From Candidatus Woesearchaeota archaeon UBA525 (GTDB lineage: Archaea; Nanobdellota; Nanobdellia; Woesearchaeales; UBA525), in the NCBI GenBank assembly GCA_002498125.1, contig DAGG01000027.1, forward strand, positions 35,862-99,861: a stretch of 64,000 nucleotides of DNA, written 5' to 3'. A program made the position numbers and the translations under genes. Below, piece by piece: positions 13,388-61,812 of this stretch (positions are counted from its first letter, which is position 1; each line of letters opens with the position of its first letter). The notes under the pieces are model-generated. The model saw nothing but the letters and a program-made list of their open reading frames with translations, had not been told where the DNA came from and did no database searches.

Positions 13388-13852
13388 GTGGGCATACACA
13401 CAGTAGATATGGGAAAGCACAAGAGACACAATCAAACGACGCCTCGGTCCAACGACATGCTCAAGCTAGGCATCGGTGTGCTCGGCATCGCCGTGCTCAT
13501 CGGCACGATATTCTTCATCCGCGCGCAGTTCGACCCAAACCCCGGCTTCGAAAACCAAGCAACCTCAGGCGGAGCGCAGATGCAAGACGGCGCGCAAGTC
13601 GTTAATATGGAAGTGACCTCGTTCGACTACCGACCGGCAGACCTGACGGTGAAGCAGGGCGTGCCAGTGAAGTGGGTGATTGATGGCAGCGGAGCGTCAG
13701 GTTGCACGCAGTTCCTCATTGCGCGCGACTTCGGCATCAGCCAACGCATCGTACGTGGAGAAAACATCATCGAGTTCACGCCGACACAGAAAGGGACCTT
13801 TCCGTTCAGCTGCTCCATGAACATGGCACGCGGCACAATCACGGTCGTATGA
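13388..13852 (+). CDS. cupredoxin-like copper-binding protein, membrane anchored
   Basis: TM anchor followed by a beta-rich domain with Cys/Met (GCTQF...FSCSMNM). Stop overlaps the MCO start (ATGA). Confidence 0.45.
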   Translation: MGIHTVDMGKHKRHNQTTPRSNDMLKLGIGVLGIAVLIGTIFFIRAQFDPNPGFENQATSGGAQMQDGAQVVNMEVTSFDYRPADLTVKQGVPVKWVIDGSGASGCTQFLIARDFGISQRIVRGENIIEFTPTQKGTFPFSCSMNMARGTITVV

Positions 13853-22393: not shown

Positions 22394-23305
22394 ATGGTCA
22401 CTGAACGCATCACCATCCACGGAACGCATTGCAGCTCCTGCGAGAAGACCATCACGAGGACCCTCGCGAAAGAAGGAGTGAAAGTAGAGAGCATCTCGCA
22501 CAAGACTGGCAAGGCCACGATTACCCACGACAGCATACCGCACGATAGGATAGACGCGATGCTACAGAGCAAAGGATACGGCATCGAAAAGTGCCGCGAT
22601 GGCACTTGCACCCCAGATGACATGCATAAGCACCAACCACTCTCGGAGAAGACATTCGATACTGAGCGCCGCATCATCACCAACGGCATCCTCGCGCTCA
22701 TCATTCTCGTCGCTACGCAGATAGGGCTCGTCTACGCGATATACAGCATCATGCCAGGGTACTCGAGCAAGTACATGCTCCCGCTCATCTATATCCCTGT
22801 GGCGGTGGTCACGAATCTCGTGGCGCTCTGGCACCAGCGCGCTTACCGCCGCGAGGTCAGCTGCATGACCGGCATGATGATCGGCATGACCATCGGCATG
22901 ACGAGCGGCTTCGTCATCGGCGGCATCTCGGGACTGATCAACGGCATGTTCACCGGCTCGGTGATCGGCACAGCGATCGGGATAGCGGCAGGAGTCTACG
23001 CTGGCAGGTGCTGCGGCACCATGGGCATGATGGAAGGCATGATGGCAGGGCTCATGAGCGGCACCATGGGTGCCATGCTCACCGTCATGATGATCGGAGA
23101 CCACGTCGAGGCGTTCCTCATCATCCTCATCGCAATTACTATCCTGATCCTCGCGGGACTCATGCGCGTCACAGTAGAGGAGACACGCGGCTCAGAGAAT
23201 GACGTGAAGCCATGGCCGTTATGGGCGGTGGTAGGAGTAGGGTTCATCGCAATGACAGTGATTAGCGCCGCGATAATGCTCGCGCCAAAGAGCATCTACG
23301 GATAA
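22394..23305 (+). CDS. HMA-domain fused to Met/Gly-rich polytopic membrane protein
   Basis: N-terminal GTHCSSCE HMA motif; TM region with MTGMMIGMTIGMTSG...GRCCGTMGMMEGMMAGLMSGTMG. Confidence 0.55.
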   Translation: MVTERITIHGTHCSSCEKTITRTLAKEGVKVESISHKTGKATITHDSIPHDRIDAMLQSKGYGIEKCRDGTCTPDDMHKHQPLSEKTFDTERRIITNGILALIILVATQIGLVYAIYSIMPGYSSKYMLPLIYIPVAVVTNLVALWHQRAYRREVSCMTGMMIGMTIGMTSGFVIGGISGLINGMFTGSVIGTAIGIAAGVYAGRCCGTMGMMEGMMAGLMSGTMGAMLTVMMIGDHVEAFLIILIAITILILAGLMRVTVEETRGSENDVKPWPLWAVVGVGFIAMTVISAAIMLAPKSIYG

Positions 23306-27629: not shown

Positions 27630-28784
27630 TTAGATATTCCTGCACAGCCGCAGCATGTGCTCCTGCTCGTCGACCTCGACGGCCCAGACCTGGACCTTCC
27701 CCTTGGAGAGCTGGACAGGCATCTCCTTCTCGAGCGCCGCTGGGTCGATCTCTATGCCGAACTCCTGCAGATCACGCAGGATACGCTCGCGCATGCGCGG
27801 GGCGCGCGGCATCCCGCCTGAGAGCACGATGCAGTCAACTCCACCTAACACTGCGAGGTACGCACCGAGGTACTTGCGCATGCGGTAGGCGAAGAGGTCA
27901 AGCGCGAATGCTGCAACCTTATCGCCAGCGCGTTCGCGCTGAAGGAGCTTACGCACGTCCGGCTCGCCGGCGATACCCTTGAGACCGCTCTCCTTCTCGA
28001 GCATGTCGAGCACAGCCTCCGGAGTCATGCTGGCGTGATGCGCGAGGTAGATGACCGCCGCAGGGTCGATATCGCCGCTGCGCGTCCCCATGACGAGGCC
28101 TTCGAGCGGCGTGAGTCCCATTGATGTGTCAATGCTGCGGCCGTCCTTGATTGCGCATAGGCTCGCGCCGTTTCCCAACTGACAGGTGATGGCGCGAGAG
28201 AACTTGCGGCCGGCAAGACGCTCTGCCTCAAGCAGCATCGCTTCGTGCGCGAGACCGTGGAATCCATAGCGGTAGATGCCGTGCTTGCGCGCGACATCGA
28301 TTGGTATCGCGTAGGTGCGCGCGACCTCCGGCATCTTGCGGTGGAACATAGTGTCGAAGCAGGCGATATGCTTGGCCTCGGTGCTCTGCATGAACGCCTT
28401 GATGAGCCCGATGCTCGGCGGGAGATGGAGCGGCGAGAGTGGTATGAGTATCTCGAGTTCCTTGAGGATGTGAGGCGTGACGATGACGGGAGCATCGTGG
28501 TACTCGCCGTGCGTCACGCGATGAATGATGCGTGTCGGCCGCACGCTGTCGCAGAGCTTGAGTATGACCTTACCTGCATGGTTGTAAGTCGCGACCTTCT
28601 CATCGCAGGTAATCACTTCGCCGCGATGGCGCGCCTCAATCACCGTTTCGCCGCCTATCGCGTCGATGACTCCGTCAAGGAGGATATCATCGTGGCCTCC
28701 ATGACCGCGTTCGTAAAGGCGGAACTTCACGCTCGAGCTGCCAGCATTCAGGATGAGCGTGGGCTCAATGCCACTTCCAGCCAT
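27630..28784 (-). CDS. ackA: acetate kinase
   Basis: ILNAGSSSVKF N-terminus and YGFHGLAHE motif; start trimmed to the internal MAGSGIEPT Met. Confidence 0.85.
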   Translation of the reverse strand: MAGSGIEPTLILNAGSSSVKFRLYERGHGGHDDILLDGVIDAIGGETVIEARHRGEVITCDEKVATYNHAGKVILKLCDSVRPTRIIHRVTHGEYHDAPVIVTPHILKELEILIPLSPLHLPPSIGLIKAFMQSTEAKHIACFDTMFHRKMPEVARTYAIPIDVARKHGIYRYGFHGLAHEAMLLEAERLAGRKFSRAITCQLGNGASLCAIKDGRSIDTSMGLTPLEGLVMGTRSGDIDPAAVIYLAHHASMTPEAVLDMLEKESGLKGIAGEPDVRKLLQRERAGDKVAAFALDLFAYRMRKYLGAYLAVLGGVDCIVLSGGMPRAPRMRERILRDLQEFGIEIDPAALEKEMPVQLSKGKVQVWAVEVDEQEHMLRLCRNI

Positions 28785-31119
28785 GGACGCCCTCCGGGTC
28801 GCTGCCGTGGCGCAGGATGTATGCCTTGTGCTCAAGGATCTTGCTCTCGTACGTTGCGACCAGGAGCTCTGCCTTGGCGGCGACCTGCGGGTTAACCCTC
28901 GCGCCGTGGCGGATGAGGCGCATGGCGAGGTGGTACCTGCTCACGTTGTTGCGGATGAACATGTCGAATGGCGTCGTGGTCGTTCCCTTCTCTATGTAGC
29001 CGTATACGTGGAACCGATCGTTCCTCGGCCTGTCGAAGAGTATCTGCTTCACCGCGCCCGGATAGCCGTGGAATGTGAACACGACCTTGCGGTCCAGCGG
29101 GAAGAGCATGTTGAATGTCGCCTCGTCCATCGCGTTCGGGTAGAACGGGTTTACGCCCAGGCTATTGAGCTCGCTCACGTTCACGAACTGCACGCGCAGC
29201 TCAGGCACCTGGTGGCGGAGCATCATGATTGTCGCGAGCGCCTCCTGCGTCGCGTAGTCCCCGCATGCAGCGAGTACCACGTCAGGATTCTGCGCACTGG
29301 CGAAGTCCCAAACGGCTGCACCAGTGAGGCACTGCTCGACTGCCTGCTCATACGTCCGCCACTGGCGAATGAGCTGCTTATCGGCGACGATGACATTCAC
29401 GCGGTTCGTGCTGCGCAGGCTATGGTCCATCATCGCGAGCGCCATGTTCGCGTCAGCGGGGAAGTACAGCCTGATGTTGTGCTCCTCACGCGCCTTGTTC
29501 AGCAGCGTGCTGACGAAGCCGGGGTTCTGGTGGCTGAAACCATTATGGTCCTGTCGCCAGCAAACGCTCGTGAGGATGTAGTTCAAGCTCGGCACTGGGG
29601 TGCGCCACTTGCGCTGCTCCGAGAGCTCGATGAACTTGATGTACTGGCTCACCATGCTATCCACGATGGGCAAGAACGCCTCGTAGCTCGGGAATATGCC
29701 GTGGCGACCAGTGAGGTTGTACCCCTGGAACCAGGACTGGAGCGTGTGCTCGCTGAGCATCTCCATGACGCGGCCGGTCTGGCCAATCTTCGCGTCCTTG
29801 GCATCCTCTGTCGGCCACACGTAGACCTTGTCAGTGATGTCCAGAACAGCGTCGAGCTTGTTGCTCGCGAGTTCGTCAGGGCTGAATATCCTGAAGTTGT
29901 GCTTGTCGGCGTTCAGGATGAGGACGTGCTTGAGGTACTGGCCGATGGTCGGTGTGCTCGCGCCGTGGACGCTACCGGGGCGGTCGAGCTTTATCTCAAG
30001 GCGGTGCGGGTCAGGCAGCGTGAGCGGGATGCGCATGTTGCCGCCCAGCGCGTTCGGGTTGCTGCCGATGCGCAGGTCACCCATCGGGACGTAATCGAGG
30101 AGGTCGGCAGGGATTTTTCCACCTGGGAAGATGTCATGCGGCTTGTAGCTCTTCAGCCATTTCTCCACCTCCTTGAGCGACTCATGGTTTGTCTGGCAGT
30201 CCTTGGCCGGCACCTGGTGGCTGCGGAAGCTGCCTTCGACCTTGTGCCCCTCGTGCATCTTGACACCAGTCCATCCTTTTGGCGTGCGCAAGAGAATCAC
30301 CGGCCACTTCGGGCGCGCGATTGGTTTGCCGCTGCGTGCGGTGTTCTGGATGCGCTTGATGCGCTGGTAGGCATTCTCTATCGCCTCGCCCATCTCCTTG
30401 TGGTCCGGGCCGACGAACAATGGCTCATAGCCGTAACCGATGAAGAGGCTCTTCAGCTCCGCATCGCTCATTGTCCCGTACACTGTCGGGTTGCTGATCT
30501 TGAATCCGTTGATGTGGACGATAGGCAGCACCGCGCCGTCAATCTTCGGGTTGAGCCATTTGGTGCTATGCCACGCTGTGGCTGTTGGTCCTGTCTCTGC
30601 TTCACCGTCACCGACGATGCATGCTGCGATGAGATCAGGATTGTCGAGCACTGCGCCAAAAGCCGTGCCGAGCGAGTAGCCGAGCTCGCCGCCTTCGTGG
30701 ATGCAGCCCGGGACGCCGGGGTTGAGGTGGCTCGGGAACCCTTCTGGCCAGCAGAACATCTTGATGAGATTGCCCATGCCTGCTTTGTCGTGCGTGAGCT
30801 GTGAATAGTAGGGCTGTAGGCTGCCTTCGAGGAAGTTGTTCGCGAGGATCGCAGCGAAGCCGTGGCCTGGTCCTGTGAGGAGGAGCACAGGCTGCTCATG
30901 CTTCACGATCATGATGTTCAGGTGGGTGTAGATGAAGTTGATGCCTGGGCACGTGCCCCAGTGGCCGAGGAGGGAATCTTTGATATGGCTTGGCTTGAGC
31001 GGCTCTTCAACGAGGAAGTTGTCCTTCAGGTAGATGCTCGCCGCTGCGAGATAATTGGCCGCTGTCCAGTACTTCTGTGCCCAATCGAGCTCCTGCTTAG
31101 AGAGAACCAATCCCCTCAC
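28765..31119 (-). CDS. xfp: xylulose-5-P/fructose-6-P phosphoketolase
   Basis: GHWGTCPG signature; 784 aa; collinear with known Xfp. Confidence 0.9.
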   Translation of the reverse strand: MRGLVLSKQELDWAQKYWTAANYLAAASIYLKDNFLVEEPLKPSHIKDSLLGHWGTCPGINFIYTHLNIMIVKHEQPVLLLTGPGHGFAAILANNFLEGSLQPYYSQLTHDKAGMGNLIKMFCWPEGFPSHLNPGVPGCIHEGGELGYSLGTAFGAVLDNPDLIAACIVGDGEAETGPTATAWHSTKWLNPKIDGAVLPIVHINGFKISNPTVYGTMSDAELKSLFIGYGYEPLFVGPDHKEMGEAIENAYQRIKRIQNTARSGKPIARPKWPVILLRTPKGWTGVKMHEGHKVEGSFRSHQVPAKDCQTNHESLKEVEKWLKSYKPHDIFPGGKIPADLLDYVPMGDLRIGSNPNALGGNMRIPLTLPDPHRLEIKLDRPGSVHGASTPTIGQYLKHVLILNADKHNFRIFSPDELASNKLDAVLDITDKVYVWPTEDAKDAKIGQTGRVMEMLSEHTLQSWFQGYNLTGRHGIFPSYEAFLPIVDSMVSQYIKFIELSEQRKWRTPVPSLNYILTSVCWRQDHNGFSHQNPGFVSTLLNKAREEHNIRLYFPADANMALAMMDHSLRSTNRVNVIVADKQLIRQWRTYEQAVEQCLTGAAVWDFASAQNPDVVLAACGDYATQEALATIMMLRHQVPELRVQFVNVSELNSLGVNPFYPNAMDEATFNMLFPLDRKVVFTFHGYPGAVKQILFDRPRNDRFHVYGYIEKGTTTTPFDMFIRNNVSRYHLAMRLIRHGARVNPQVAAKAELLVATYESKILEHKAYILRHGSDPEGVHGWKWH

Positions 31120-33656: not shown

Positions 33657-33767
33657 GAACTGATTGCGTCTAACTTCTCAGGCAGCTCGCGCAGTGAATG
33701 GATGAGATCCGTGCACTACTCGTTCTGCGTGATGAACATCCGGCAGACCTTGAGGAATATGCCCTCC

Positions 33768-34739
33768 CTACGTATCCCGCCCCTCGATGATGGCGCGCGG
33801 CAAGGATGTGATGAAATGTTCAGTGTAACCGACGAACACCTCGTAGTTCCTGACGTCCGGCGAGAGTACGGCTTTGAACTCCTTGAAGATGCGGTGGAAC
33901 TCAGAAGTGCTTCCCACGGCGATGTACGCGAGGATGTCCCATGTGCCAACAGTTTTGACGCAGCGAGCGACGGCGGGCGTGGTCCTCACGAACTCAAGCA
34001 CCCGTTGCTGGTAGCGCTCGTCGAACTGCTTCATCTGGACCGCGATCGTGTACCACTGCCGACCCATGCGCTGCGGATCGGTGATGATGGTGAAGCGCTT
34101 GATGATACCGGTTTCCTTGAGGCGCTTGATGCGTTTGATGACCGCGTCAGGACCGATCTCGATACGCTTCGCTATATCGACAGCGCTCGTTCTCGCATCA
34201 TCAGCGAGGAGGCGCAGTATGGCGAGGTCTGTCGCATCGAAGGACTTCACGGCAGAGGACCGCGCCTTGCCCCACCTCACGACCACGAGCGTGTCCCGCT
34301 CCGAGATAATGTCGGAGTACTTGGTGGATATGCGCATGAGGATCGTGTCGAGCTCCTCGAGGTCCTTGGCCAGCAACCTCCACTGCACGTCCCATTTATC
34401 ATTGTACTCGAGCAGCGCCTCGGTGTTCGGGTGCTGGCGCAGCTCCTGCATGAGCTCCCGCTGCCGTTGCAGGCTCACTTCGTCGAGGACCATGAAGACC
34501 TTGCAGACGAAGTAGCCGAAGACACTCCTGTCAATCTCAGCGTAGTGCTTCCTGATGACGCGGAGCTGCTCCATGCGGCGCACCCTATAGGTGACTGTGT
34601 CCCTGTTCATCCCCACTCGTTTGGAGAGGCCAGATACCGGCATCCTCGAGTCCTCCCGCAGGAGGGCGAGGAGCTTCATGTCCTTCACATCTAGTTTCAC
34701 CGGCAGGTCTCCGTCGGGATGCGCAGCGCTTTTAGGCAT
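33768..34739 (-). CDS. tandem (duplicated) Lrp/AsnC-family transcriptional regulator
   Basis: Two complete HTH+RAM units (LLALLREDSRMPVSGLSKRVGM... and LAILRLLADDARTSAVDIAKRIEI...). Confidence 0.7.
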   Translation of the reverse strand: MPKSAAHPDGDLPVKLDVKDMKLLALLREDSRMPVSGLSKRVGMNRDTVTYRVRRMEQLRVIRKHYAEIDRSVFGYFVCKVFMVLDEVSLQRQRELMQELRQHPNTEALLEYNDKWDVQWRLLAKDLEELDTILMRISTKYSDIISERDTLVVVRWGKARSSAVKSFDATDLAILRLLADDARTSAVDIAKRIEIGPDAVIKRIKRLKETGIIKRFTIITDPQRMGRQWYTIAVQMKQFDERYQQRVLEFVRTTPAVARCVKTVGTWDILAYIAVGSTSEFHRIFKEFKAVLSPDVRNYEVFVGYTEHFITSLPRAIIEGRDT

Positions 34740-34953
34740 TGATGCACACTAACCGCCTCAATTATATAAAATTATCTGGAAATACGAATAATACAGTTGA
34801 ATATTTCTTATATCTCAACACCATCACCTGAATCAAGCGGAGCAAAGGAGACGCAGAAGGCGTCTGCCCGACGCCAAAAACCGCTAATAGTACAGTAACT
34901 ACTACGAGAGAGTGACATAAGGGAATATTTTTAAATCGAAGGGATACCCCCAG

Positions 34954-35619
34954 GTGAACGACATGACCTACATGAACAGGTTGAAGGAACGCGCGAAGCA
35001 GCTCGCGAACAACGTCCGTCAGAAGGTAGAGGATGAAGGCGGCCTCGGCAACATCGTCGAGAAAACCACCCTCGAACTCAGCGAGAAGGCAGGAAAAGCT
35101 GCCGGACACGTGGCCAAAGCGATAGACGGAGCAATCAACTACGAAGGAGACAGCCTCAACCCGAAGGATATCTACAACGCAGGCACTGTCGACGTAGGTG
35201 CGACCGCGCAGAAGGCACGCGAGTTCGCAGGCAAAGGCGTAACACACACACGTACAGCCGCAGCGACGATAACTGATAAGGTCAAGACAGCAGCAGAGGA
35301 CGCGAAACACTACGCATCGGAGGTCAACGGAGCGATCAACGACATCGCGACAGGGCCAGATCACGTCGTGGGCATCGGCAACCGCTTCTACTGGGTCCGC
35401 TCGCACAGCAAGCTCGAGATCGGACAGGTGAAGCAGTACCTGACGACAATCTCCGCAGCCATCCCGCCGGCGACGACGGGCAGGCAGGAGGTCCTCACCT
35501 TCATCGCCGACAACGCAATCAGCACCGAAGGCAGGCTCTACGATCTCTGGGAGAAGCAGAAGATGCCAGAGCTGAAGGCGCTGACCTATATCGCGAATGC
35601 GCGCAACACTCATACATAG
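34954..35619 (+). CDS. hypothetical protein (operon gene 1)
   Basis: GTG/ATG start downstream of a TATA-like ATATTTTTAAAT; no motif. Confidence 0.45.
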   Translation: MNDMTYMNRLKERAKQLANNVRQKVEDEGGLGNIVEKTTLELSEKAGKAAGHVAKAIDGAINYEGDSLNPKDIYNAGTVDVGATAQKAREFAGKGVTHTRTAAATITDKVKTAAEDAKHYASEVNGAINDIATGPDHVVGIGNRFYWVRSHSKLEIGQVKQYLTTISAAIPPATTGRQEVLTFIADNAISTEGRLYDLWEKQKMPELKALTYIANARNTHT

Positions 35620-35645: not shown

Positions 35646-36755
35646 ATGGCAGAACTCAAAATTCAGAAGGAGATGTCCAAGCTAGAGACGCTCCGCGCGC
35701 AGCGCAAGCGCGACCTCTCAGGGGTCTACAGTGGCCTCGACCAGAGGACCAACGACCTGCTCGGCGCACGCAACAAGGAGCAGGCACGCACCACGGCCCA
35801 GAGTCATCGCGCGAAGCTGGATGAAGGACTGAGCCACTTCCAGAGCTACAGGCAGGACATCGCGACGCTGAGCGCAGGGCTCCAGGAGAACCTCGAGCTC
35901 TACGTTGAGTTTGCGAACAAGTTCGAGAACTACCAGGGCAAAGAGAAGGTCGTGAAGGTCATCGGTATGAAGGGCCTCGCGAACAAGTGGCGCCACCAGC
36001 GCATCTCCACACAATCGCCCAAGGAGAACCTGCAGCAGATCGTCGACTACGGCATGCAGCTCGTCCGCGAGCTTGAGGATGTCCGCGAGGAGGCTATCAA
36101 CCAGTACGAGAGCCTGCAGGGCAGCGTCGACATGATCACTGTGAAGCTTAAGGATTACCAGCCACTCGAGGCAGAGCTCAAGGAGCGCCTCGATGCGATG
36201 AAGGCAATCTACGACGAGAAGAACGGGAAGTTCAAGAACGCTTCACCGACGGAGCAAGTCACTCTCGCAGACGAGATGAACAACCTGCACAAGCAGTTGA
36301 CCACAATCCAGGACGAGTACGACACCGCCCTGACTGTGTACAGCCAGGCGCAGCAGGCGCTCCAGAGCAACATCGAGTCGCGCGACGCGTTCGACCAGAT
36401 GCAGCGCGACCTCGGACGCCAGGCGAACATGATCCAGGAGAAGCTGGAGAACGTCGTCAAGATCTACGAGGCAGCACCCGAAGCGCTGAAGGTGATGATG
36501 AAGACGAAGGGCACGGAGACGCTCGACAAGAGCATCAACTACGCCACAAGTGAGTCCGTGAGGACCATCATCAAGGCAGCCAGCGGAGTCAACGACGCCA
36601 CCCTCGCACGCGAGGAGATCCAGCTCGTTGACGCTGCTGTAGTGCGTGAGTTCATGGACGAGACCACGCGCCGCAAGAATGACTTCGAGGCCCGCTATCT
36701 AGGCATCCGCGAGAAGGCACTGGAGAGCCAGGCCGAGCGCTACGCCGCGAAGTGA
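35646..36755 (+). CDS. long coiled-coil protein (operon gene 2)
   Basis: SD ggagg upstream; 369 aa, heptad-rich throughout. Confidence 0.5.
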   Translation: MAELKIQKEMSKLETLRAQRKRDLSGVYSGLDQRTNDLLGARNKEQARTTAQSHRAKLDEGLSHFQSYRQDIATLSAGLQENLELYVEFANKFENYQGKEKVVKVIGMKGLANKWRHQRISTQSPKENLQQIVDYGMQLVRELEDVREEAINQYESLQGSVDMITVKLKDYQPLEAELKERLDAMKAIYDEKNGKFKNASPTEQVTLADEMNNLHKQLTTIQDEYDTALTVYSQAQQALQSNIESRDAFDQMQRDLGRQANMIQEKLENVVKIYEAAPEALKVMMKTKGTETLDKSINYATSESVRTIIKAASGVNDATLAREEIQLVDAAVVREFMDETTRRKNDFEARYLGIREKALESQAERYAAK

Positions 36756-36806: not shown

Positions 36807-37943
36807 ATGAAAGAACGCATGAGAATCAAAGATAGGCCATACCTCGCCTTCGTTGTGCCTAAACCGCAGGTGACATCGCAGGACGACGGCAAGACGCTCT
36901 CTCCTGATGAAACGCTCGAGCACCTGGAGATGATTCTACGGCCGCTGCGCATGCTCCCAAGGTTCGTGTATGAGAAACTGCCGCAGGACGGCGGCGAGAA
37001 CACCCCGCTGCGCGAGTACATGATCCGTGTGGCGGACACCATCGAGGCCATCGGCATGAAGACACGCATGGAGCTGGAGCTGCCGCGCGACACGCACTTC
37101 CCGTGCATGATTGACCCGTCGGCATCAGGCTATCCGCTCTTCGCGCGCGACCTGCGCATGATGGTCACGGACAAGAACCAGGCAGTGGAGCGCCTCTCCG
37201 CGATGCGCACCGACAGCATCCTGGTAGAGGACGCGATCCATGCAATCATGCGCGGCAAGTTCCCTGCGGATGCAGTGTATGAGAAGCTTAGACGGGAGTA
37301 CTTCGGCCATCTGCAGGAACTCGCGATGCCCGAGCCGGTCAGGCTCCACGCCCCGACCTTCGTGAAAGAACAGGGCGCGTTCAGCCACTGGACAATGTCG
37401 GCGGAAAGGCTCGACGACCACCATAACATCCCGCGATTCTACACGCTCAGCTACAAGATACCGAACCGCTCCGTGAACAACCCGGCGGTGCACAGCGCGT
37501 TCAATGAGCGCGTCGAACGATCCTTCACCGTATCCACGGACCTCGAACTGCAACTCATGGCAGGCGAAGTAGAGAGCATCGAAGGCATCCAGCTGCAGGC
37601 GATTGAGCGCTACGACCTCGGCCCGCTATTCAACAGGTTCACTAACAACAGCCCTGAGGTACAGCGCCTCCTCGACGCAGGACGCAAGGACGACACCATC
37701 ATGGTGTACAAGAAGCAGACAGTGCATCGCAGGGGAGAGACCCCGAAACAGGGCCTCATGGATCGCCTGAACGCATTCCTCAGCGGCGACCACAGCGATG
37801 GTATATTCAGCCCTGTCGTGTCATCACCATACTACGCACTCATGCCGCGCCGCCTCATAGAGAAGGTGCACCATCTCGACATAGACCTCGGTCAGAATGT
37901 CAGAATGTACGGAATAACAAGCACAGGTGATCTCGTTGACTGA
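36807..37943 (+). CDS. hypothetical protein (operon gene 3)
   Basis: 378 aa; no motif. Confidence 0.45.
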   Translation: MKERMRIKDRPYLAFVVPKPQVTSQDDGKTLSPDETLEHLEMILRPLRMLPRFVYEKLPQDGGENTPLREYMIRVADTIEAIGMKTRMELELPRDTHFPCMIDPSASGYPLFARDLRMMVTDKNQAVERLSAMRTDSILVEDAIHAIMRGKFPADAVYEKLRREYFGHLQELAMPEPVRLHAPTFVKEQGAFSHWTMSAERLDDHHNIPRFYTLSYKIPNRSVNNPAVHSAFNERVERSFTVSTDLELQLMAGEVESIEGIQLQAIERYDLGPLFNRFTNNSPEVQRLLDAGRKDDTIMVYKKQTVHRRGETPKQGLMDRLNAFLSGDHSDGIFSPVVSSPYYALMPRRLIEKVHHLDIDLGQNVRMYGITSTGDLVD

Positions 37944-39912
37944 AGCCAATAGCCCTATCGACATCAACCACGAACTCGTGGAGAAGTACCACAAGGAAGT
38001 AGAGGAGACTCTCGTCACCTATGACTTCGGCAACAAGCGTCACTCGCTCCCCGAGCTCATGAACAAGATCGACAAGAAAGAGCCCTATGTCATGAGCGAC
38101 ATCGAGCGCGACAGCTACCTCGCGATCCGTGAGGGCATGCAGGTCTTCCGTGCGACAGCGCAGCTCGTCGGCGAGAAGGTCGGACTCAAGGAGAAGCTCG
38201 TCAACCTCGGATCGAAGGACCCTGAGCTGCTCAAGCTCAAGGACTTCTGCTACAGCTACGCCACGTTCGTGGCATCGAAGTACGTCGTGAAGAAGCTCGA
38301 CATGATTGTTGCAGCGAACAACGACGGCGGCATCCCCACCCCTGAGATGGACCTGGCCGCCCTCAAGCTCAACAACACGAGCGCCGAGAGCCTGGCCATG
38401 CGCCACCTGCTCGCGCCGGTGTACAAGTCATTACTGGACCATCTCGACGACAAGGACGCAGAGTACGGCCACCCCGTCCAGTTCGCGATGGAGATGCGCG
38501 AGGTCTTCACGCAGTACGCGAAGCTCGCGGCGGAGAAAGAGGACCAGTACCCGGACCTCGACCGCCACGTGAAGAACTACCAGTTCCGCGTGCTGGACGA
38601 CTTCATCGAGCTCAACGGCTTCGAGGACAAGAGTATCCCCGTCGCGAAGAAGCAGCAGGCGGCGAAGCTCACATTCCAGCCCATCAGCCCGAACGAGATC
38701 GTCGGCAACAAGATGGCGAAGCGTAAGATTGCGCGTTACATGGACCGCATCGCGCTCTACAACGCCACACAGCAGAACAACCCAATCCTCGACCTGGGAG
38801 GCCTCTCGTGGACCAACCTATTCGACGGCCCCCCAGGCACAGGCAAGTCATCCATGTTCCGCATGGCCATGACCATCCTGCAGAAGAGGGCGGAGCAGAT
38901 CGGACTTCCGTATAACGTCGTGATGGTCGACCAGTCGATTAAGGACGAGTTCTACGGCAAGACAGGTAAGATTCTGCTCAACAGGCTCGAAGTCACTAAT
39001 GACCCAAAGGCACTGAGCGTCGTAGTGTTTGACGACATCGACCTGCTCACGAGCAAGCGCGACGACGCGCAGGGAGCGGACAACGACGTCAACAACATCA
39101 TCATGCAATACCTAGATGGCGTCTTCACCGTCCGCCGCGGCAACGTAATCAACTTCGCGGCGACGAACAAGCCGACAGGTCTGGACGACGCGATGCGCAA
39201 CCGCTTCAACGACCGCCTGCTCATCGATGGCCCGATAACGAAGGAAGACTTCGCTGACCTCCTCGTGCTCCGCCTCGGCAAGCTCCAGAAGAGCGGCCTG
39301 GTCACCATGGACATCGGCTACAAGCCGTTCCAGACGCAGGACCAGATGGACGAGCACGGCCACTGGAGCGGCGGCAAGGTCGCCGAGTACATGGCCGAAG
39401 AGTTCGAGAAGCGCAAGGACTCGACATTCTTCAATGTCGGAGAGTTCTTCGCTGACCTCAAGAAGAAGAACCCGAAGATCAGCGGACGCTCAGCAAACGC
39501 CATCATCGAGGCCATCAAGGAGCGCTCAGCGGACTTCGATATCCCTGATGATTGGTTCGAGAACCGTGCGGCCTTCATCGAGCAGCCGTATGACACGCAG
39601 CGGGCGATGCTCAAGGATCTGTACGTAAAGATTGACGGCAGCATCTTCTTCCAGGAAGCCAAGCGCTACTTCGATTCGGAGGAGCGTTATGCGGAGAACG
39701 AGGCGAAGAGCGCCGTGGAGAGGAACTACAACGCCCACGCATGGGATGTCCAGGCGAGGATTCAGGTGCTGCGCGACCAGATAGTCGGCGGCGACAAGTC
39801 GAACATGGCTGAGCTCGCTGGCCTCGAGGCGCAGATGGAAGCGATCCAACAGGACAGGATAAAGACTGTGAGAGAAGTTGAGAAGCACGCAAAGGAGGAG
39901 AAGCGCAGATGA
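37927..39912 (+). CDS. AAA+ ATPase, classical/meiotic-clade-like, with long N- and C-terminal extensions
   Basis: Walker A GPPGTGKS, Walker B VVVFDDIDLL, sensor-1 ATNKP, second region of homology DDAMRNRFNDR; 661 aa. Confidence 0.8.
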   Translation: MISLTEANSPIDINHELVEKYHKEVEETLVTYDFGNKRHSLPELMNKIDKKEPYVMSDIERDSYLAIREGMQVFRATAQLVGEKVGLKEKLVNLGSKDPELLKLKDFCYSYATFVASKYVVKKLDMIVAANNDGGIPTPEMDLAALKLNNTSAESLAMRHLLAPVYKSLLDHLDDKDAEYGHPVQFAMEMREVFTQYAKLAAEKEDQYPDLDRHVKNYQFRVLDDFIELNGFEDKSIPVAKKQQAAKLTFQPISPNEIVGNKMAKRKIARYMDRIALYNATQQNNPILDLGGLSWTNLFDGPPGTGKSSMFRMAMTILQKRAEQIGLPYNVVMVDQSIKDEFYGKTGKILLNRLEVTNDPKALSVVVFDDIDLLTSKRDDAQGADNDVNNIIMQYLDGVFTVRRGNVINFAATNKPTGLDDAMRNRFNDRLLIDGPITKEDFADLLVLRLGKLQKSGLVTMDIGYKPFQTQDQMDEHGHWSGGKVAEYMAEEFEKRKDSTFFNVGEFFADLKKKNPKISGRSANAIIEAIKERSADFDIPDDWFENRAAFIEQPYDTQRAMLKDLYVKIDGSIFFQEAKRYFDSEERYAENEAKSAVERNYNAHAWDVQARIQVLRDQIVGGDKSNMAELAGLEAQMEAIQQDRIKTVREVEKHAKEEKRR

Positions 39913-41159
39913 GCCGCACACTGCAAGGCGAACAGATGCTCTTCAAGAGGCTCTTCCCCATCGAGGGTGAGCTCGTGGAGAGCTACAATCGCGCGCTCAG
40001 GAAGGTCACCGGTATGGAGACGAAGCTGTCCGCGTTCCATGTGGACCGGCGCGGAAAGTCTCCTGAAATCCAGCGCGAGCTGGGGCCGGACTACCTGCAG
40101 GCGGGTCATGCGAGGTACATGATCGTGGTCTCGCCTGAACAGGCAGGTATGGACATCATCCATCCTGAATTCTCGTTCGACGAGACGCTCTTCGAGAATC
40201 TGTACCAGAACCACCTCAGCGGTATCAGTATCGTCACGCGCGTAGATGGCCTGTACGGCGAGCTCGAGGACGGGCTGCGCGCCTACTCTGCCGACGATAT
40301 CACAGGCATCAAGTGGACGAAGACCCGCCTACACACACCATCAGGATTCATCACGAAGGCACGTGAGCTCAAGACGCTCATCGAGCAGCTTGAAACCGAT
40401 CCCTCCCTCCTCGTGAAGGAGAAGAGTGCTCACCTACGCAAGATGGTCGCGCTCGCCGAGGAGGTCGGAGACATCCGCGGCTACAGCATCACGAACATCA
40501 ACGCGACGCGCGATGTCGGCAGCTTCAGCACAACGCTGCATGGCGGGATGTATATCATCCGCGACGATGGCAACGGCACGATCAAGCTCAAGCGCCCCGG
40601 CCGCAGGGCCACGCGCAGGGAATCAGCAGTGACCGGACGCTCCTACGTCATCAGCGAAGCCGAAGTCTCATCGCCTGGCGTGACGCACATCCCACTCAAC
40701 GACGGCAAGCAGGTCATTGAGTTCCTCGTGCACAACCATCTCGCAGGCATCGATCCATCGCTCATCCCCGCGAGGCTGACGCAGATGGAAGATCTCATGC
40801 TCCTGCAGGCGCAGCACCCTGTAGCCAGGATGAACAAGTATGAGCGCCAGCAGGCGCTCGGCAAGGAACGCATGACACACATGCACCAGGAGCTGCTCGA
40901 TCTCAACAGGGCAATGGTCTACGGCGACGCGGTCGACCAGTATGATCTGGATGCAGGAGTCGTCGCCGCGCTCCTCACGCCGATAGAAGGCCCGCACGCG
41001 GGCGTCGTTTCGACGCTCACCACACACCTGTGGCCCCACGACTACACGCGCATGGCGAAGCACGACCCGTCACGCCTCGAGACGATATTCTCTGGCGCTG
41101 ACACGAACACTCAAGATTACATCATCAAGAAGCTCAAAGGTGAAGAATATGCCGACTGA
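39909..41159 (+). CDS. hypothetical protein (operon gene 5)
   Basis: Overlaps the upstream stop (ATGA); 416 aa. Confidence 0.45.
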   Translation: MSRTLQGEQMLFKRLFPIEGELVESYNRALRKVTGMETKLSAFHVDRRGKSPEIQRELGPDYLQAGHARYMIVVSPEQAGMDIIHPEFSFDETLFENLYQNHLSGISIVTRVDGLYGELEDGLRAYSADDITGIKWTKTRLHTPSGFITKARELKTLIEQLETDPSLLVKEKSAHLRKMVALAEEVGDIRGYSITNINATRDVGSFSTTLHGGMYIIRDDGNGTIKLKRPGRRATRRESAVTGRSYVISEAEVSSPGVTHIPLNDGKQVIEFLVHNHLAGIDPSLIPARLTQMEDLMLLQAQHPVARMNKYERQQALGKERMTHMHQELLDLNRAMVYGDAVDQYDLDAGVVAALLTPIEGPHAGVVSTLTTHLWPHDYTRMAKHDPSRLETIFSGADTNTQDYIIKKLKGEEYAD

Positions 41160-41988
41160 ACACAATTGGACATATGATATGGCAGGTCACTACGGCGCGG
41201 GTATCGTGCTATCGCTCGCCGATTACACAGCATACCGCCTCCGCTCGAAGAGCGAGGACCGCATCGCGCAGAAGAAGCGCTGCCTCGAGAGCATCGAGAC
41301 CATACTCAATGCGCAGGATATGAAGAACGTCACTGAAGAGACGCCGGCAATCCCGAGCGCCCCGAAGATCGACCGCGAATCCATGCAGTACGCGCTCAAT
41401 GTCGCGGAGGTCAAGCGCTACCTGACCATGGAGGACATGATCAAGGAGCCTTCGATATTCAAGCGCCTCGGCAACTACTTCCGCAGTGTGCCGCGCCACG
41501 AGCTCATCAACCCGCTCAGGTGGACGAACACACTCTACTTCGCGATGACCGCGGAGCTCGCGGAGAATGTTGTGGCCTGGGACTACTACACCAAGACTGT
41601 CGGGGACAGCCCGATTGGCGGTCTTGCGCGTAACGTCTACCAGGTGCCTGCATTCTTCGTCGGCCTCCAGACCGGCAAGGCCATCCGAAAGCCAATCGAT
41701 TGGATGGTGAAGCCCTCCGACGAAAAGAAGGCGGACAGGATGATCAAGGACCTCGTGCTCGATACGCCGATCGTTCAGATCGTGACAGAGTACGAACCGT
41801 CGGACAACGTACAACACCAGCTCGACGCGAGAGGCATGAGCTTCAATGCGCTCGCTGCACCGTTCAGCCGCGGCCTCAAGCAGCTCGCCGGCAGCGTGAC
41901 CGAATACGGCAAGCGCGCTGAGGCAAAACGCAAGGCGGAATCTGACGCGCGCATCAGCGGTTTCGACGATCTCACGAAGGATAGGTGA
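41140..41988 (+). CDS. hypothetical protein (operon gene 6)
   Basis: Overlapping, co-directional; 282 aa. Confidence 0.45.
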   Translation: MKNMPTEHNWTYDMAGHYGAGIVLSLADYTAYRLRSKSEDRIAQKKRCLESIETILNAQDMKNVTEETPAIPSAPKIDRESMQYALNVAEVKRYLTMEDMIKEPSIFKRLGNYFRSVPRHELINPLRWTNTLYFAMTAELAENVVAWDYYTKTVGDSPIGGLARNVYQVPAFFVGLQTGKAIRKPIDWMVKPSDEKKADRMIKDLVLDTPIVQIVTEYEPSDNVQHQLDARGMSFNALAAPFSRGLKQLAGSVTEYGKRAEAKRKAESDARISGFDDLTKDR

Positions 41989-43694
41989 ACAATATGGGCA
42001 ATGACGTCATGGACAGGCTGAACGCGCACCTGAAGAAGGAACGCAAGCAGCAGGACCTCTCCACCAAGGCAGGCAGGCTGAAGCGGAACCTGAAGAGCTT
42101 CGGCAAGAAAGCAGCCATCGGTGCAGCAATCCTCGGGACGCTCGGAGGCATCGGCACCTACTATCTCGGCAAGGATTACGTGACAAAGAGGCAGAACTAC
42201 CCTATCAGAAGGGTCCTCTACCACACGCAGGAGACCATGAACTTCGCTGGCGGCGAAGAGGAGTTCACATCACGCTACGCCGACCGCCATGAGGAGACGA
42301 CGATCCAGCGCGGCAGCATGGACGGCACGAAACTCGGCGACCCGCTCGGCTACATGCGTTATACGACAAATGATGAGCTCATGAACTACCGCCTTGAGGA
42401 CCAGGACAAGAACCAGATCGCGTTCGCGTCAGAGAAGCGCGAGCACCTCCAGGCAGGCCCACGCATAAGCGGCGGCATTGACTTCCAAGAACTCCAGGCG
42501 GACCTACTCGTCGGCAAGAAGGGCAAATTCATCACTTACACCTTTATGCCGGAGCGAGGCCTTGAGAACAAGCAGCTCAACTTACTCATGGACGACCACG
42601 GGGAGCTGCACCTAATGAACGAACTCGTCACCCGCCGCACGTGGGGGATTGGTTGGCTCAAGGGCGACGTGTTCCGCAGTGGCGCACGCATCAGCGAGTT
42701 CGCAGACACGCCGGAGAATAAGAAGATCAGCGCACAGCTCATCGCGGCAATCAAGGACTACAACAGCCATATCACACCATCGCAGCGCCAGCGCGAGAAG
42801 CTCGTGTATGAAATGATGTCGCTCAGCGAGAAGCTCGAGCGCGTGCCTGTGAGCGTGAGCCACGAGGACGGCATCATCGACTGGCTTCCACAGGAGTCAA
42901 CGACGTACCTCTTCAGCGACCCGTCGCTGGCTGAGCGCGCCAGGCTCCTCCTCCCGCAGAACTACAAGGGGACGAACACTCCCCGCATGCCAGAGAATGA
43001 ATCGTGGAGCGAACTCAAGTCCCACGGCATCAAGGACGGCGAAACCATCAAGCTGCGCGTGGAGAACGACTGGGACTTGTGGCCAGGCAACTACTACGGA
43101 CTCAACAAGATCGCCTTCGGCAAAGCACCGAACCTGCTTCGCCCCTTTGCGCACTACAACAACGGCGGCTACAGCATCATGGACCGCCGCGGCGAGGTCG
43201 CACGCGTGGAGATAAAGGACTTCATCCTATACTACGGCGACGACACCCTGTTCAAGTACTACCTTGACAAGAATGGCGACGGTCGCATCGACGAGAAGAA
43301 GGAGCTCATCGGACAGGTGCTCTTCCATATCAGCCAGGACGAGAGGAAGGACCTAGAGGGTGTCATCGGCAAGGGCCATGCAAAGAAGGACGTCACGAAG
43401 CGCTACAACTACTCGTTCATGGCAGGCAGTGACTGGGAGACAAGAAATGAGGACTTCTACCTCTGCAACACCATCGAGAGCTTCATGATGAACGAGATCA
43501 ACCGCGGCTACGGCAAGCACTCGTTCCTCGGCTATGTGAACAATCAGCGTTCGGCCATCATGATGCTCGAGACCAGGAGCCTCCCGAACCTCGCACGTGC
43601 GTTGACGAACGAGAGTACGCTCGTGATCAAGGGCGACCACATCGCGCTCATGCGCGCGGCCGGACGCGATTACGTCGACAAACGCGTCGAGTAA
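41985..43694 (+). CDS. membrane-anchored protein with EF-hand-like loop (operon gene 7)
   Basis: N-terminal TM (AAIGAAILGTLGGIGTYYLG); DKNGDGRIDEKKE resembles a Ca-binding loop. Confidence 0.45.
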   Translation: MNNMGNDVMDRLNAHLKKERKQQDLSTKAGRLKRNLKSFGKKAAIGAAILGTLGGIGTYYLGKDYVTKRQNYPIRRVLYHTQETMNFAGGEEEFTSRYADRHEETTIQRGSMDGTKLGDPLGYMRYTTNDELMNYRLEDQDKNQIAFASEKREHLQAGPRISGGIDFQELQADLLVGKKGKFITYTFMPERGLENKQLNLLMDDHGELHLMNELVTRRTWGIGWLKGDVFRSGARISEFADTPENKKISAQLIAAIKDYNSHITPSQRQREKLVYEMMSLSEKLERVPVSVSHEDGIIDWLPQESTTYLFSDPSLAERARLLLPQNYKGTNTPRMPENESWSELKSHGIKDGETIKLRVENDWDLWPGNYYGLNKIAFGKAPNLLRPFAHYNNGGYSIMDRRGEVARVEIKDFILYYGDDTLFKYYLDKNGDGRIDEKKELIGQVLFHISQDERKDLEGVIGKGHAKKDVTKRYNYSFMAGSDWETRNEDFYLCNTIESFMMNEINRGYGKHSFLGYVNNQRSAIMMLETRSLPNLARALTNESTLVIKGDHIALMRAAGRDYVDKRVE

Positions 43695-44451: not shown

Positions 44452-46873
<2,422 letters not shown>

Positions 46874-61386: not shown

Positions 61387-61812
61387 TTGAATTCTCCACT
61401 CTTCATGTCCATCGAGCTAGCGACAGAGCAGGATCTTGAGGGGATTATGCAAGCCAACAAAGGGCTCAAATCCATAGAGCACAAGATCCACAATCCCGAG
61501 ACTGTGAAGCTGCTCATCAGCAATGAACAATTCTATGTCGCAAAAGGCGATGAGGTCTACGGAGCACTATCCCTTGGCGAGAAGGATGAATTCCTCTATA
61601 TCTACACGCTCTCTGTCCGGGAAGAGCATAAACATAGAGGAGTTGGCACATCTCTCGTCGAATTCGCCATATCCCTGGCCCGCGAGGGGGAGTACCCTGG
61701 AGTGAAAGTCTCTTCGCACCACTCCTTCCATGCGAAAGAGTTCTACCTGAAGCACGGTTTTGAGATAGAGAAAGATTACGGGGACGGATACCTCTTCACC
61801 ATGCAGTTCTAA
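61387..61812 (+). CDS. GNAT N-acetyltransferase
   Basis: HRGVGTSLV acetyl-CoA binding motif. Confidence 0.7.
   Translation: MNSPLFMSIELATEQDLEGIMQANKGLKSIEHKIHNPETVKLLISNEQFYVAKGDEVYGALSLGEKDEFLYIYTLSVREEHKHRGVGTSLVEFAISLAREGEYPGVKVSSHHSFHAKEFYLKHGFEIEKDYGDGYLFTMQF

Follow-up and report, generated by a model that had tools for sequence, protein, structure and literature searches.

Genes and features of the locus

The window analysed here, 64,000 nt of a contig of Candidatus Woesearchaeota archaeon UBA525, carries a cluster of codirectional genes around an AAA ATPase (g3). A summary of genes and features is given in Table 1. A divergent Lrp/AsnC-type regulator gene borders the cluster upstream, and the AT-rich stretch between it and the first forward gene, as read from the sequence, is probably the archaeal promoter region. 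The gene after g6 lies on the opposite strand and the cluster therefore ends at g6. For the first gene, g0, neither Pfam nor NCBIfam gave a match and tblastn found it at no other locus. Judged from these searches g0 is lineage-specific and lies outside the conserved module, and it may be co-transcribed with the cluster. The JGI call for g3 gives a protein identical to the 661-aa ORF.

Table 1. Genes of the cluster and features of the AAA protein and its partners (positions are those of the window).
Feature	Position	Strand	Description
Lrp/AsnC-type regulator gene	33768-34739	-	divergent; upstream border of the cluster
AT-rich intergenic region	34740..34953	.	TATA-like boxes (sequence read); between regulator and first forward gene
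g0	34954..35619	+	ORF of ~220 aa; JGI call; 26 bp upstream of g1
g1 (component A)	35646..36755	+	369 aa, soluble, acidic, coiled-coil-rich; syntenic homologues
g2 (component B)	36807..37943	+	378 aa; syntenic homologues; 3' end overlaps AAA start by 17 nt
g3 (component C), AAA ATPase	37927..39912	+	GTG start, 661 aa
g3 N-domain	37927..38661	+	aa 1-245; E52, E60, R68, F107 invariant
g3 large (alpha/beta) AAA subdomain	38674..39234	+	aa 250-436
g3 Walker A	38827..38850	+	GPPGTGKS, aa 301-308, family-invariant
g3 pore loop 1	38947..38967	+	EFYGKTG, aa 341-347; K339, Y343, G344 invariant
g3 Walker B	39019..39048	+	VVVFDDIDLL, aa 365-374; dipeptide D-D
g3 sensor-1	39160..39174	+	ATNKP, aa 412-416; N414 invariant
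g3 second region of homology (SRH)	39184..39216	+	DDAMRNRFNDR, aa 420-430; R424, R426, R430 invariant
g3 lid (small) subdomain	39235..39561	+	aa 437-545, divergent; ~30-aa insertion at 456-486
g3 sensor-2-like Arg motif	39478-39492	+	I[ST]GRS (here ISGRS), aa 518-522; G520, R521 invariant
g3 C-terminal extension	39562..39909	+	aa 546-661
g3 DSEERY within conserved RYFDSEERY	39673-39690	+	aa 583-588
g4 (component D), DUF6638 protein	39909..41159	+	416 aa; ATG overlaps AAA stop (ATGA)
g5 (component E), membrane-associated	41140..41988	+	282 aa; JGI start ~41179
g6 (component F), single-pass membrane protein	41985..43694	+	569 aa
g6 TM helix	42111-42170	+	~aa 43-62
g6 EF-hand-like loop	43266-43304	+	DxNxDG, aa 428-440

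Core motifs of the AAA protein

An earlier note on this DNA had read g3 as an AAA+ ATPase with Walker A, Walker B, sensor-1 and SRH motifs. The ORF and all of these motifs were confirmed, and the Pfam family AAA (PF00004) matches aa 298-433 with E 2.5e-15 (57.5 bits, cut-off 21.2). The P-loop GPPGTGKS agrees with the pattern GxxGxGK[ST]. The motifs do not vary in at least 89 clusters of full-length homologues and are therefore far beyond chance. Pore loop 1, the sensor-1 Asn and an SRH with two Arg, all features of classical AAA proteins, are present, and the aromatic-x-Gly of the pore loop persists even in the diverged alphaproteobacterial versions. By its sequence g3 is a genuine protein-remodelling classical AAA ATPase. 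The aromatic pore loop and the D-D of Walker B had both been overlooked in the earlier note.

Walker B departs from the hhhhDE pattern inside an otherwise canonical AAA domain. The Mg-binding Asp is kept, and Asp370 occupies the site of the catalytic Glu. Among the domains read, 84 of the family have DD and 2 have ED at this site, while all 44 outgroup AAA domains show DE (44/44); diverged family versions have DD too. This could make the protein a weak ATPase or a switch instead of a processive translocase.

The SRH had been assigned to the D.A..RRF..R type as opposed to the PGRFD type. The absence of PG holds, as HMMER aligned 'mrn..rf' of g3 to 'LRRpgRF'; the adjacent arginines do not, the sequence being R-N-R-F rather than RRF. 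The g3 family has RNRF at this site and the outgroups R[PG]GRF.

N-terminal domain, lid and C-terminal extension

The N-terminal extension, estimated before at ~370 aa, is in fact ~245-250 aa long ahead of the AAA fold, since Walker A begins at aa 301. Where ~150 aa had been said to follow the core, the SRH is succeeded by a lid of ~110 aa, including the sensor-2-like Arg, and then by an extension of ~115 aa. That no motif is recognisable in the extensions was borne out: Pfam, NCBIfam and PDB profile searches with g3 gave no match beyond aa ~235-460. Pfam AAA_lid_3 matches neither g3 nor its homologues.

The AF2 model of g3 has a mean pLDDT of 86; the pTM of the full-length protein is 0.59, leaving the arrangement of the domains uncertain. 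The N-domain is predicted with four long helices (58-85, 99-131, 154-174 and 183-202) plus short strands. A profile of the family N-domain found nothing among PDB sequences, MIT included, and Pfam MIT (PF04212) matches neither g3 nor its 89 homologues. At the sequence level both MIT and a fused enzyme were dismissed as identities of the N-domain, Pfam, NCBIfam and the N-domain profile against PDB sequences having given no match; its fold might still include a MIT-like sub-bundle. Fold searches with the full-length protein were dominated by the AAA core. In the model of the C-terminal extension, a short helix (555-563) precedes two long ones (571-620 and 627-660) that form a hairpin.

N- and C-terminal regions are conserved throughout the family. 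The N-domain can be traced to the Vibrio version (hhalign probability 94.5%) and is thus kept from archaea to Vibrio. Conservation of both regions is in keeping with a function in selecting the substrate or adaptor. A tblastn search of plasmids with the N-domain of the window gave no match.

Placement among AAA families

In sequence and in structure the best matches of g3 are Cdc48, AFG2, VAT and Rpt. These matches would suit a stand-alone housekeeping unfoldase, a paralogue of the Cdc48/VAT/PAN type with coincidental neighbours. However, the scores remain far under the NCBIfam cut-offs of those families (37.4 bits against 802.65 for TIGR01243 (CDC48), 32 against 500 for PAN). Moreover g3 has one AAA domain, forming a single ring and not a D1-D2 tandem, and neither CDC48_N (PF02359) nor PF02933 matches it. 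Gene order with overlapping frames is kept across two domains of life, and this synteny contradicts coincidence. We regard a housekeeping unfoldase as very improbable.

The earlier note had favoured the Vps4/spastin/katanin clade. Vps4, spastin and katanin carry an MIT three-helix bundle at the N-terminus (PMC6279391), and the meiotic clade has a specific C-terminal helix past the lid, alpha12 or Vps4_C (PMC6279391, PMC4686814). In Pfam, Vps4_C (PF09336) matches neither g3 nor its homologues, and an MIT signature is lacking as described above. The NCBIfam CdvC model matches g3 weakly (34 bits), and a Vps4-like protein and FIGL1 match it as well as any other clade does. No search favours the clade, nor did any sequence or structure comparison show g3 closer to it than to other classical AAA proteins. 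An SRH without PG is not exclusive to the meiotic clade and also occurs in ClpB D1.

These data bear on a further reading, in which g3 is a highly divergent Vps4/CdvC-like enzyme whose N-domain acts as an MIT analogue and which disassembles an ESCRT-III-like polymer of g1, the whole being a true prokaryotic relative of ESCRT. The SRH without PG insert, shared with Vps4, spastin and katanin, is consistent with it, as are the single AAA domain with a helical N-domain, the weak CdvC match, the parity of Vps4-like protein and FIGL1 with other clades, and a conserved C-terminal tail of g1 that recalls MIM motifs. We consider such an enzyme unlikely. Instead, g3 very probably represents a separate family within the classical AAA clade and the motor of a dedicated module.

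Partner proteins

Component A (g1) ends in a conserved tail, S-x-x-E-R-Y, in which Tyr366 is nearly invariant. More than 1222 clusters of g1 homologues were found, all of them annotated as 'hypothetical' and practically without Pfam annotation; the Vibrio homologue is recognised by hhalign with a probability of 99.8%. Profile searches against Pfam and PDB yielded generic coiled-coil only, with vimentin, keratin, lamin and SNAP25 at noise level. The fold family of g1 was examined by relaxed Pfam scans of 9 members and by two profile searches of the PDB, in which no likeness to ESCRT-III, PspA or SNAREs rose above coiled-coil noise. Identities as ESCRT-III, PspA, TelA or a ClyA-like protein were dropped, the scans having returned coiled-coil noise and AhlB at E 0.6 only. 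By analogy g1 is a candidate polymer or substrate.

Component B (g2) belongs to no Pfam family and shows no recognisable domain; its Vibrio homologue is found with an hhalign probability of 99.3%. Component D (g4) is a genuine member of DUF6638 (PF20343; 82.3 bits, cut-off 27), and PGAP annotates the Vibrio homologue as 'DUF6638 family protein'. It is the partner most tightly tied to the AAA protein. For one module partner without a known domain a confident model was obtained that matches no PDB fold.

The remaining two components are membrane proteins. g5 has a central hydrophobic hairpin (~aa 115-190) with the motif YQ[IV]PAFF.GL..G, which appears as two clear TM helices in homologues, and a conserved RFDDLTKGR-like C-terminal tail; a 2-TM protein of a homologous locus (L012) aligns to it with an hhalign probability of 95.9%. 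In g6 a TM helix links a basic N-terminal tail to a conserved ectodomain (~500 aa) that has an EF-hand-like loop. The EF-hand_5 match in the g6 family is sub-threshold (4 of 9 members), and some g6 homologues add a C-terminal TM anchor. A resemblance of the g6 ectodomain to DUF2333 comprises three collinear motif matches at E 0.003 and a probability of 10%, and we do not claim a relationship. Likewise, hhalign comparisons of g1 with g2, of the N-domain with g1 and of g5 with DUF2333 found the proteins unrelated in all three cases.

Distribution and conservation of the module

All six genes keep their order, and stop and start codons overlap, in the window and in Moduliflexus, a gammaproteobacterium, Woesearchaeota, Methanosarcinales, Nanoarchaeia and CPR bacteria, and the flanking genes are unrelated between these loci. 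Rhizobiaceae, S. meliloti Ak57 and a V. parahaemolyticus megaplasmid carry a core of A, B, the AAA gene and DUF6638. The four proteins of this core are cytosolic and come in the fixed order A (~360 aa), B (~380 aa), C (the AAA protein) and D (DUF6638); in most cases one or two membrane proteins come after them. AAA and DUF6638 genes adjoin in all versions seen but two, in which an endonuclease gene separates them. One of the two, S. meliloti Ak57, carries an IS element there in addition, and the module is therefore dispensable in this strain. In S. meliloti 1021 the orthologues may, as a tentative mapping, lie near SMc02730-02735; a ChvI-binding fragment has been reported within SMc02733 (PMC3687685).

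Proteins with TM helices end every version but that of Vibrio. In Rhizobiaceae and Rhodobacterales the gene after DUF6638 encodes a DUF2333 (PF10095) or DUF1523 (PF07509) membrane protein. Vibrio has no adjacent membrane gene and the membrane link may therefore be accessory. At the DNA level, nothing in E. coli genomes matches the AAA-DUF6638 genes of Vibrio.

This variation bears on whether g3 is a chaperone for extraction, insertion or secretion of membrane proteins (similar to Msp1, FtsH or EccA), pulling the tails of E and F or exporting A and B, with A, B and D as cofactors or cargo. Between versions the membrane parts change (g5 and g6, DUF2333, DUF1523, none in Vibrio) and A-D do not, which argues against membrane proteins as the primary client. 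Furthermore neither signal peptides nor parts of a secretion system were detected, and matches to WXG100 and EccA are insignificant. We thus hold a chaperone of this kind to be rather improbable.

A similarly low probability is given to a role in anti-phage defence or conflict, with an IetA-like AAA protein sensing or processing the invader and the other components being membrane-directed abortive-infection effectors. Here the patchy spread, the evident transfer between domains with differing flanks, the presence on Vibrio megaplasmids and the dispensability in Ak57 would be in line with defence. IetA/IteA profiles match g3 weakly and consistently (PADLOC 42 bits, NCBIfam 33 bits), as does phrog_3757, a family of phage AAA proteins. 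These alignments (aa 233-453; E 1.8e-11 for PADLOC, 2.3e-13 for PHROG) reach ~60 residues past the N-terminal border of the Pfam core. However, IetA proteins have ~370 aa and lack the N- and C-domains of g3, and the IteA score of 33 bits faces a cut-off of 510. PADLOC returned weak IetA models only and none for any other component; neither an IetS protease near g3 nor a nuclease or toxin domain was found. PHROGs matches of the module are confined to AAA families of unknown function, and DUF6638 is absent from 50,697 phage records. Moreover the flanks are housekeeping genes and not defence islands, CPR and DPANN organisms retain the module in their reduced genomes, and the Rhizobiaceae operon occupies a fixed chromosomal position, suggesting vertical inheritance.

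Literature searches for DUF6638, PF20343, DUF2333, PF10095 and DUF1523 found nothing relevant, and a comparative-genomics paper on PSP and ESCRT (PMC11237479) does not describe the operon. A link between DUF6638, a dedicated AAA ATPase and the A and B proteins seems to be new to the literature.

Proposed function of the module

Our preferred explanation, to which we assign a probability of roughly one half, is that the AAA protein is the motor of a gene module common to archaea and bacteria and remodels partners from its own cassette. None of the partners can be assigned to a recognisable fold or family, and each functional step is therefore argued by analogy. g3 would assemble as a hexamer, with the invariant Tyr-Gly loop lining the pore through which polypeptide is threaded. 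ATP turnover may be slow or gated by a partner, as suggested by the D-D of Walker B. DUF6638, being translationally coupled, may serve as stoichiometric cofactor or adaptor of the AAA protein, and the N-domain would dock the conserved terminal tails of proteins from the same cassette. The likeliest client would be an assembly of the coiled-coil protein A, with or without B, placed at the cytoplasmic membrane by E and F. The overall logic would combine an assembly (polymer or complex) with an adaptor and an ATPase for its disassembly. That the ATPase acts on cassette-encoded partners at the membrane is about an even bet, and coiled-coil A as the client is a tentative proposal.

To our knowledge classical AAA families of prokaryotes are few (FtsH, Cdc48/VAT, PAN/Mpa, CdvC and some others), and each of them stands for a major machine of the cell. 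g3 would add a further family with a signature of D-D Walker B, R-x-R SRH and private N- and C-domains, bound in fixed gene order to three to five proteins without a known domain. The module spans the divide between archaea and bacteria and persists even in tiny genomes. As the module is present in tractable species (a Sinorhizobium meliloti strain and Vibrio parahaemolyticus), its function is directly testable. If the coiled-coil partner is a remodelled polymer, a new membrane-associated cytoskeletal or remodelling system would emerge; if not, context is still gained for DUF6638 and, in some lineages, for DUF2333 and DUF1523.

Comparison with known systems

The nearest known proteins are Cdc48/p97/VAT, AFG2/SPATA5 (D1), Rpt/PAN and Mpa. 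They form two stacked rings, in contrast to the one AAA domain of g3, which also lacks the CDC48_N double-psi barrel and the OB/coiled-coil N-domain of this group and scores 10-20 times under the NCBIfam cut-offs of the Cdc48 and proteasomal families. Unlike the Cdc48/VAT/AFG2/Rpt group, g3 has an SRH without PG, D-D instead of D-E in Walker B, a sensor-2-like Arg in the lid, a unique N-domain and a unique C-terminal hairpin. Compared with Vps4/CdvC, spastin, katanin, fidgetin and MSP1/ATAD1, its arginines are spaced as R-N-R and not adjacent, and there is no beta-domain. The C-terminus of the meiotic clade is one helix, whereas g3 ends in a long hairpin (50+34 residues). In contrast to Vps4/CdvC systems, the coiled-coil neighbour g1 is not detectably ESCRT-III- or PspA-like.

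ESCRT-III/Vps4, SNARE/SNAP/NSF and TssBC/ClpV would share the working logic proposed here and no homology with the module. The likeness to NSF/alpha-SNAP/SNARE and to ClpV/TssBC would be a functional one: an AAA+ ring with its own N-domain, together with an adaptor, would recycle a helical or coiled-coil assembly at the membrane. A, B and D gave no sign of homology to SNAREs, SNAPs or sheath proteins, and g3 has a single AAA ring. On a more speculative note, which we rate as doubtful, the A-B-AAA-DUF6638 module might be an ancient new class of machine common to Archaea (including DPANN) and Bacteria (CPR, rhizobia and vibrios). In such a machine a coiled-coil polymer or complex at the membrane would be cyclically remodelled by its own AAA protein and an adaptor of novel fold, in parallel to ESCRT-III/Vps4 or SNARE/NSF and of independent origin.

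The ATPase and its family

The open reading frame reported in the earlier note is real (g3, table), and all the motifs quoted from it were located. A protein identical to its product (P0001) comes from a JGI metagenome contig of 70.8 kb. The contig is archaeal, with genes for ribosomal protein S3Ae, a diphthamide-synthase-like protein and a PGF-pre-PGF surface protein. The N-terminal extension had been drawn too long, as the AAA fold starts at about aa 250. Two features had been overlooked: an aromatic pore loop, EFYGKTG, and a Walker B motif with D-D in place of D-E.

A database search returned 89 clusters of full-length homologues (30-56% identity, ~600-700 aa) from bacteria (Moduliflexus, Desulfobacteraceae, Gammaproteobacteria, Parcubacteria) and archaea (Woesearchaeota and others), below which scores fall abruptly to generic AAA proteins. 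Among genomic loci, the nearest are from uncultured Methanosarcinales, at 54% identity. Conservation was read from a 42-sequence alignment. Invariant are Walker A, the pore-loop residues K339, Y343 and G344, D370 and D372, N414, the arginines R424, R426 and R430, and G520 and R521 of the lid, the latter a sensor-2-like Arg; E52, E60, R68 and F107 of the N-domain are among the invariant residues as well. Of the readable family domains, 84 have DD as the Walker B dipeptide and two have ED, against DE in 44/44 outgroup AAA domains read. Likewise, the second region of homology (SRH) reads R-N-R-F throughout the family versus R-[PG]-G-R-F in the outgroups. Versions that have diverged, in Alphaproteobacteria and CPR bacteria, still have DD, sensor-1 and R426, together with a pore loop of the form aromatic-x-Gly, a TGR motif and the C-terminal motif QE..RY.DSE.RY. 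These comparisons show a distinct family of classical AAA proteins with the nucleotide-binding, pore-loop and arginine-finger residues intact. DnaA, a slow, regulated ATPase, also has a D-D Walker B, which by analogy suggests gated hydrolysis.

Features of the window and segments of the g3 protein (aa, residues of that protein; modelled, AlphaFold2)
Feature	Position	Strand	Description
Lon-type gene	6483-8210	-	575 aa; only domain detected Lon protease C-terminal (S16), no ATPase domain
Multicopper oxidase	13702-15288	+	copper-handling cluster
HMA-domain protein	22394-23305	+	copper-handling cluster
Heavy-metal P-type ATPase	23310-25604	+	copper-handling cluster
Acetate kinase	27630-28835	-	
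Phosphoketolase (XFP)	28765-31119	-	NCBIfam 1016 bits
ORF	33702-34694	+	330 aa; shadow of the real gene on the - strand
Lrp/AsnC-family gene	33768-34739	-	323 aa; two AsnC-type HTH domains (Pfam); divergent from cassette
g0	34954-35619	+	~220 aa; 26-bp gap to g1
g1 (A)	35646-36755	+	369 aa; coiled-coil
g2 (B)	36807-37943	+	378 aa
g3 (AAA)	37927-39912	+	661 aa, GTG start; AAA ATPase, third gene of tightly packed cluster
N-domain, modelled	aa 1-235		long helices and short strands
Core, modelled			canonical alpha/beta subdomain
PF00004 match	aa 298-433		E 2.5e-15
Walker A	aa 301-308		
Pore loop	aa 341-347		
Walker B	aa 365-374		
Sensor-1	aa 412-416		
SRH	aa 420-430		
Lid, modelled			insertion of ~30 residues
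C-terminal extension (hairpin helices), modelled	aa 571-620, 627-660		long helical hairpin at the end
Motif RYFDSEERYA (position of DSEERY)	39673-39690 (aa 583-588)		resembles end of g1
g4	39909-41159	+	DUF6638, E 4e-23
g5	41140-41988	+	282 aa
g6	41985-43694	+	569 aa
DNA gyrase B	44693-46873	+	bacterial-type
Topoisomerase I	54709-56985	-	
PGF-pre-PGF surface protein	61809-63971	-	

Clade assignment

Placement in the meiotic clade (Vps4/spastin/katanin/fidgetin/MSP1), as claimed earlier, was preferred in none of the tests run (NCBIfam, PDB sequences, per-domain scoring, Foldseek). NCBIfam scores were all far under the cut-offs (CDC48 37, CdvC 34, IteA 33, PAN 32 bits). AFG2, Cdc48 and VAT ranked first among PDB sequences, each score being the sum over two domains; of the single-domain proteins, Rpt4 (54.9 bits) and FIGL1 (52.2 bits) tied. 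Scored per domain, Cdc48 D1 reached 42-50 bits and a Vps4-like protein 47 bits. For the structure predicted by AlphaFold2 with the family alignment (mean pLDDT 86, pTM 0.59), the Foldseek top 50 consisted of p97/Cdc48, Rix7 and Rpt. A firm Cdc48/FtsH placement, the outcome taken beforehand to speak against the meiotic clade, was not obtained either.

The SRH argument holds in that the 'PG' is truly absent; its arginines are non-adjacent, and an SRH lacking PG is not unique to the meiotic clade. Pfam gave no MIT or Vps4_C match in the protein or any homologue, and an N-domain profile matched nothing in the PDB. Moreover, the single C-terminal helix of the meiotic clade is replaced in our model by a hairpin. 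A true, divergent Vps4-like system, for which the PG-less SRH could be cited, is less consistent with the tests. Since none of them favours the meiotic clade, the arginines are non-adjacent and the PG-less SRH is not clade-specific, the protein is, judged by its sequence, a classical AAA ATPase forming its own family.

A conserved gene cassette

The genes g2/g3, g3/g4 (ATGA), g4/g5 and g5/g6 overlap at their junctions. The order of all six and their similar sizes are kept in Moduliflexus, a gammaproteobacterium, a Woesearchaeote, two Methanosarcinales, another archaeon and a Nanoarchaeote, and the genes around the cassette are unrelated between those loci. In more diverged loci of CPR bacteria and Alphaproteobacteria, A, B, AAA and DUF6638 still stand in this order; after them come small two-TM proteins or membrane proteins of the DUF2333 or DUF1523 type. 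The ATPase is obligatorily coupled in genomes to A, B and DUF6638 and frequently to membrane proteins, and the cassette has spread between domains of life.

The g1 profile finds more than 1200 clusters, mostly 362-aa proteins from cultured Rhizobiaceae, where the operon A-B-AAA-DUF6638-DUF2333 has a fixed chromosomal position. SMc02733 of S. meliloti 1021 may lie inside this operon, which we guess from a count of gene order. A binding fragment of the envelope-stress regulator ChvI was mapped within that gene (PMC3687685). In S. meliloti Ak57 the operon is interrupted: a DUF559-type endonuclease gene and the ISRm16 transposase of an IS element lie between the AAA and DUF6638 genes (CP090106.1, locus L068, 6060-7805). 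CP090106.1 is labelled 'plasmid pSymB', measures 3.7 Mb and looks chromosomal. At the metagenomic locus L066 a DUF559 gene occupies the same junction, where insertions seem to recur. An 882-kb V. parahaemolyticus megaplasmid carries the four-gene core A-B-AAA-DUF6638, then mfd (hhalign probabilities: A 99.8%, B 99.3%, AAA N-domain 94.5%).

An exhaustive profile search gave 498 DUF6638 representatives (50% identity clusters), all of them stand-alone; they measure roughly 400-520 aa, apart from fragments that are shorter. None was found in phage genomes, and the literature searched made no mention of DUF6638 or PF20343. PADLOC models matched none of the cassette partners of the ATPase. A defence system fits the tests less well than a dedicated module.

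Partner proteins

Matches of g1 are of coiled-coil type only, at noise level in Pfam and to myosin VI SAH, vimentin, keratin, lamin and SNAP25 in the PDB; neither database gave a signal for Snf7, PspA, TelA or ClyA. A tail of the form S-x-x-E-R-Y is conserved at the C-terminus of g1, its Tyr being nearly invariant in all versions. The end of g1 (…SQAERYAAK) resembles the C-terminal motif of the ATPase (table); one binding site could accept the two as ligands, or the likeness could be chance. No match to anything was found for g2.

In the window archaeon g5 is only weakly hydrophobic; in a homologous protein (probability 95.9%), the segment that aligns makes two clear TM helices. The C-terminal tail of g5 is conserved and RFDDLTKGR-like. 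In g6 there are one TM helix, a basic tail at the N-terminus and, over ~500 aa, a conserved ectodomain containing a DxNxDG EF-hand-like loop, which stays under the Pfam threshold; some homologues have an additional C-terminal TM anchor. The ectodomain shares three collinear short motifs with rhizobial DUF2333 (L064, 15529-16638): QESTxY/DESTWY, NNGGY/YNAGW and DFWxxYGxDxLY/RFWFAYGQLY. Hhalign gave E 0.003 at a probability of only 10%. Hence g6 and DUF2333, as alternative membrane components, may be remotely homologous.

Neighbouring genes

The Lrp/AsnC-family gene is a candidate local regulator. Together, the genes for bacterial-type DNA gyrase B, topoisomerase I and the PGF-pre-PGF surface protein (table) point to a euryarchaeal host. 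For g0 neither a family nor a counterpart at any other locus compared was found, and this lineage seems to have added it to the operon. Acetate kinase and phosphoketolase, adjacent here on an archaeal contig, are a typically bacterial pathway pair and were therefore possibly acquired by transfer. The Woesearchaeote locus L004 has a full LonB gene directly upstream of the cassette; together with the Lon-type gene of the window this is probably coincidence.

Proposed function

We put the probability of a separate family with its own dedicated module at roughly 85%. That the ATPase acts on cassette-encoded partners at the membrane we hold to be an even bet. It would form a hexamer threading a polypeptide, with DUF6638 as putative cofactor and the conserved tails of the cassette proteins presumably read by its N-domain. 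The client would be the coiled-coil A protein, assembled at the membrane; A as client is a tentative, rather doubtful suggestion. A chaperone for membrane-protein extraction or secretion agrees less with the tests than such a module. The proposed design would work like ESCRT-III/Vps4, SNARE/NSF and TssBC/ClpV, without being homologous to them.
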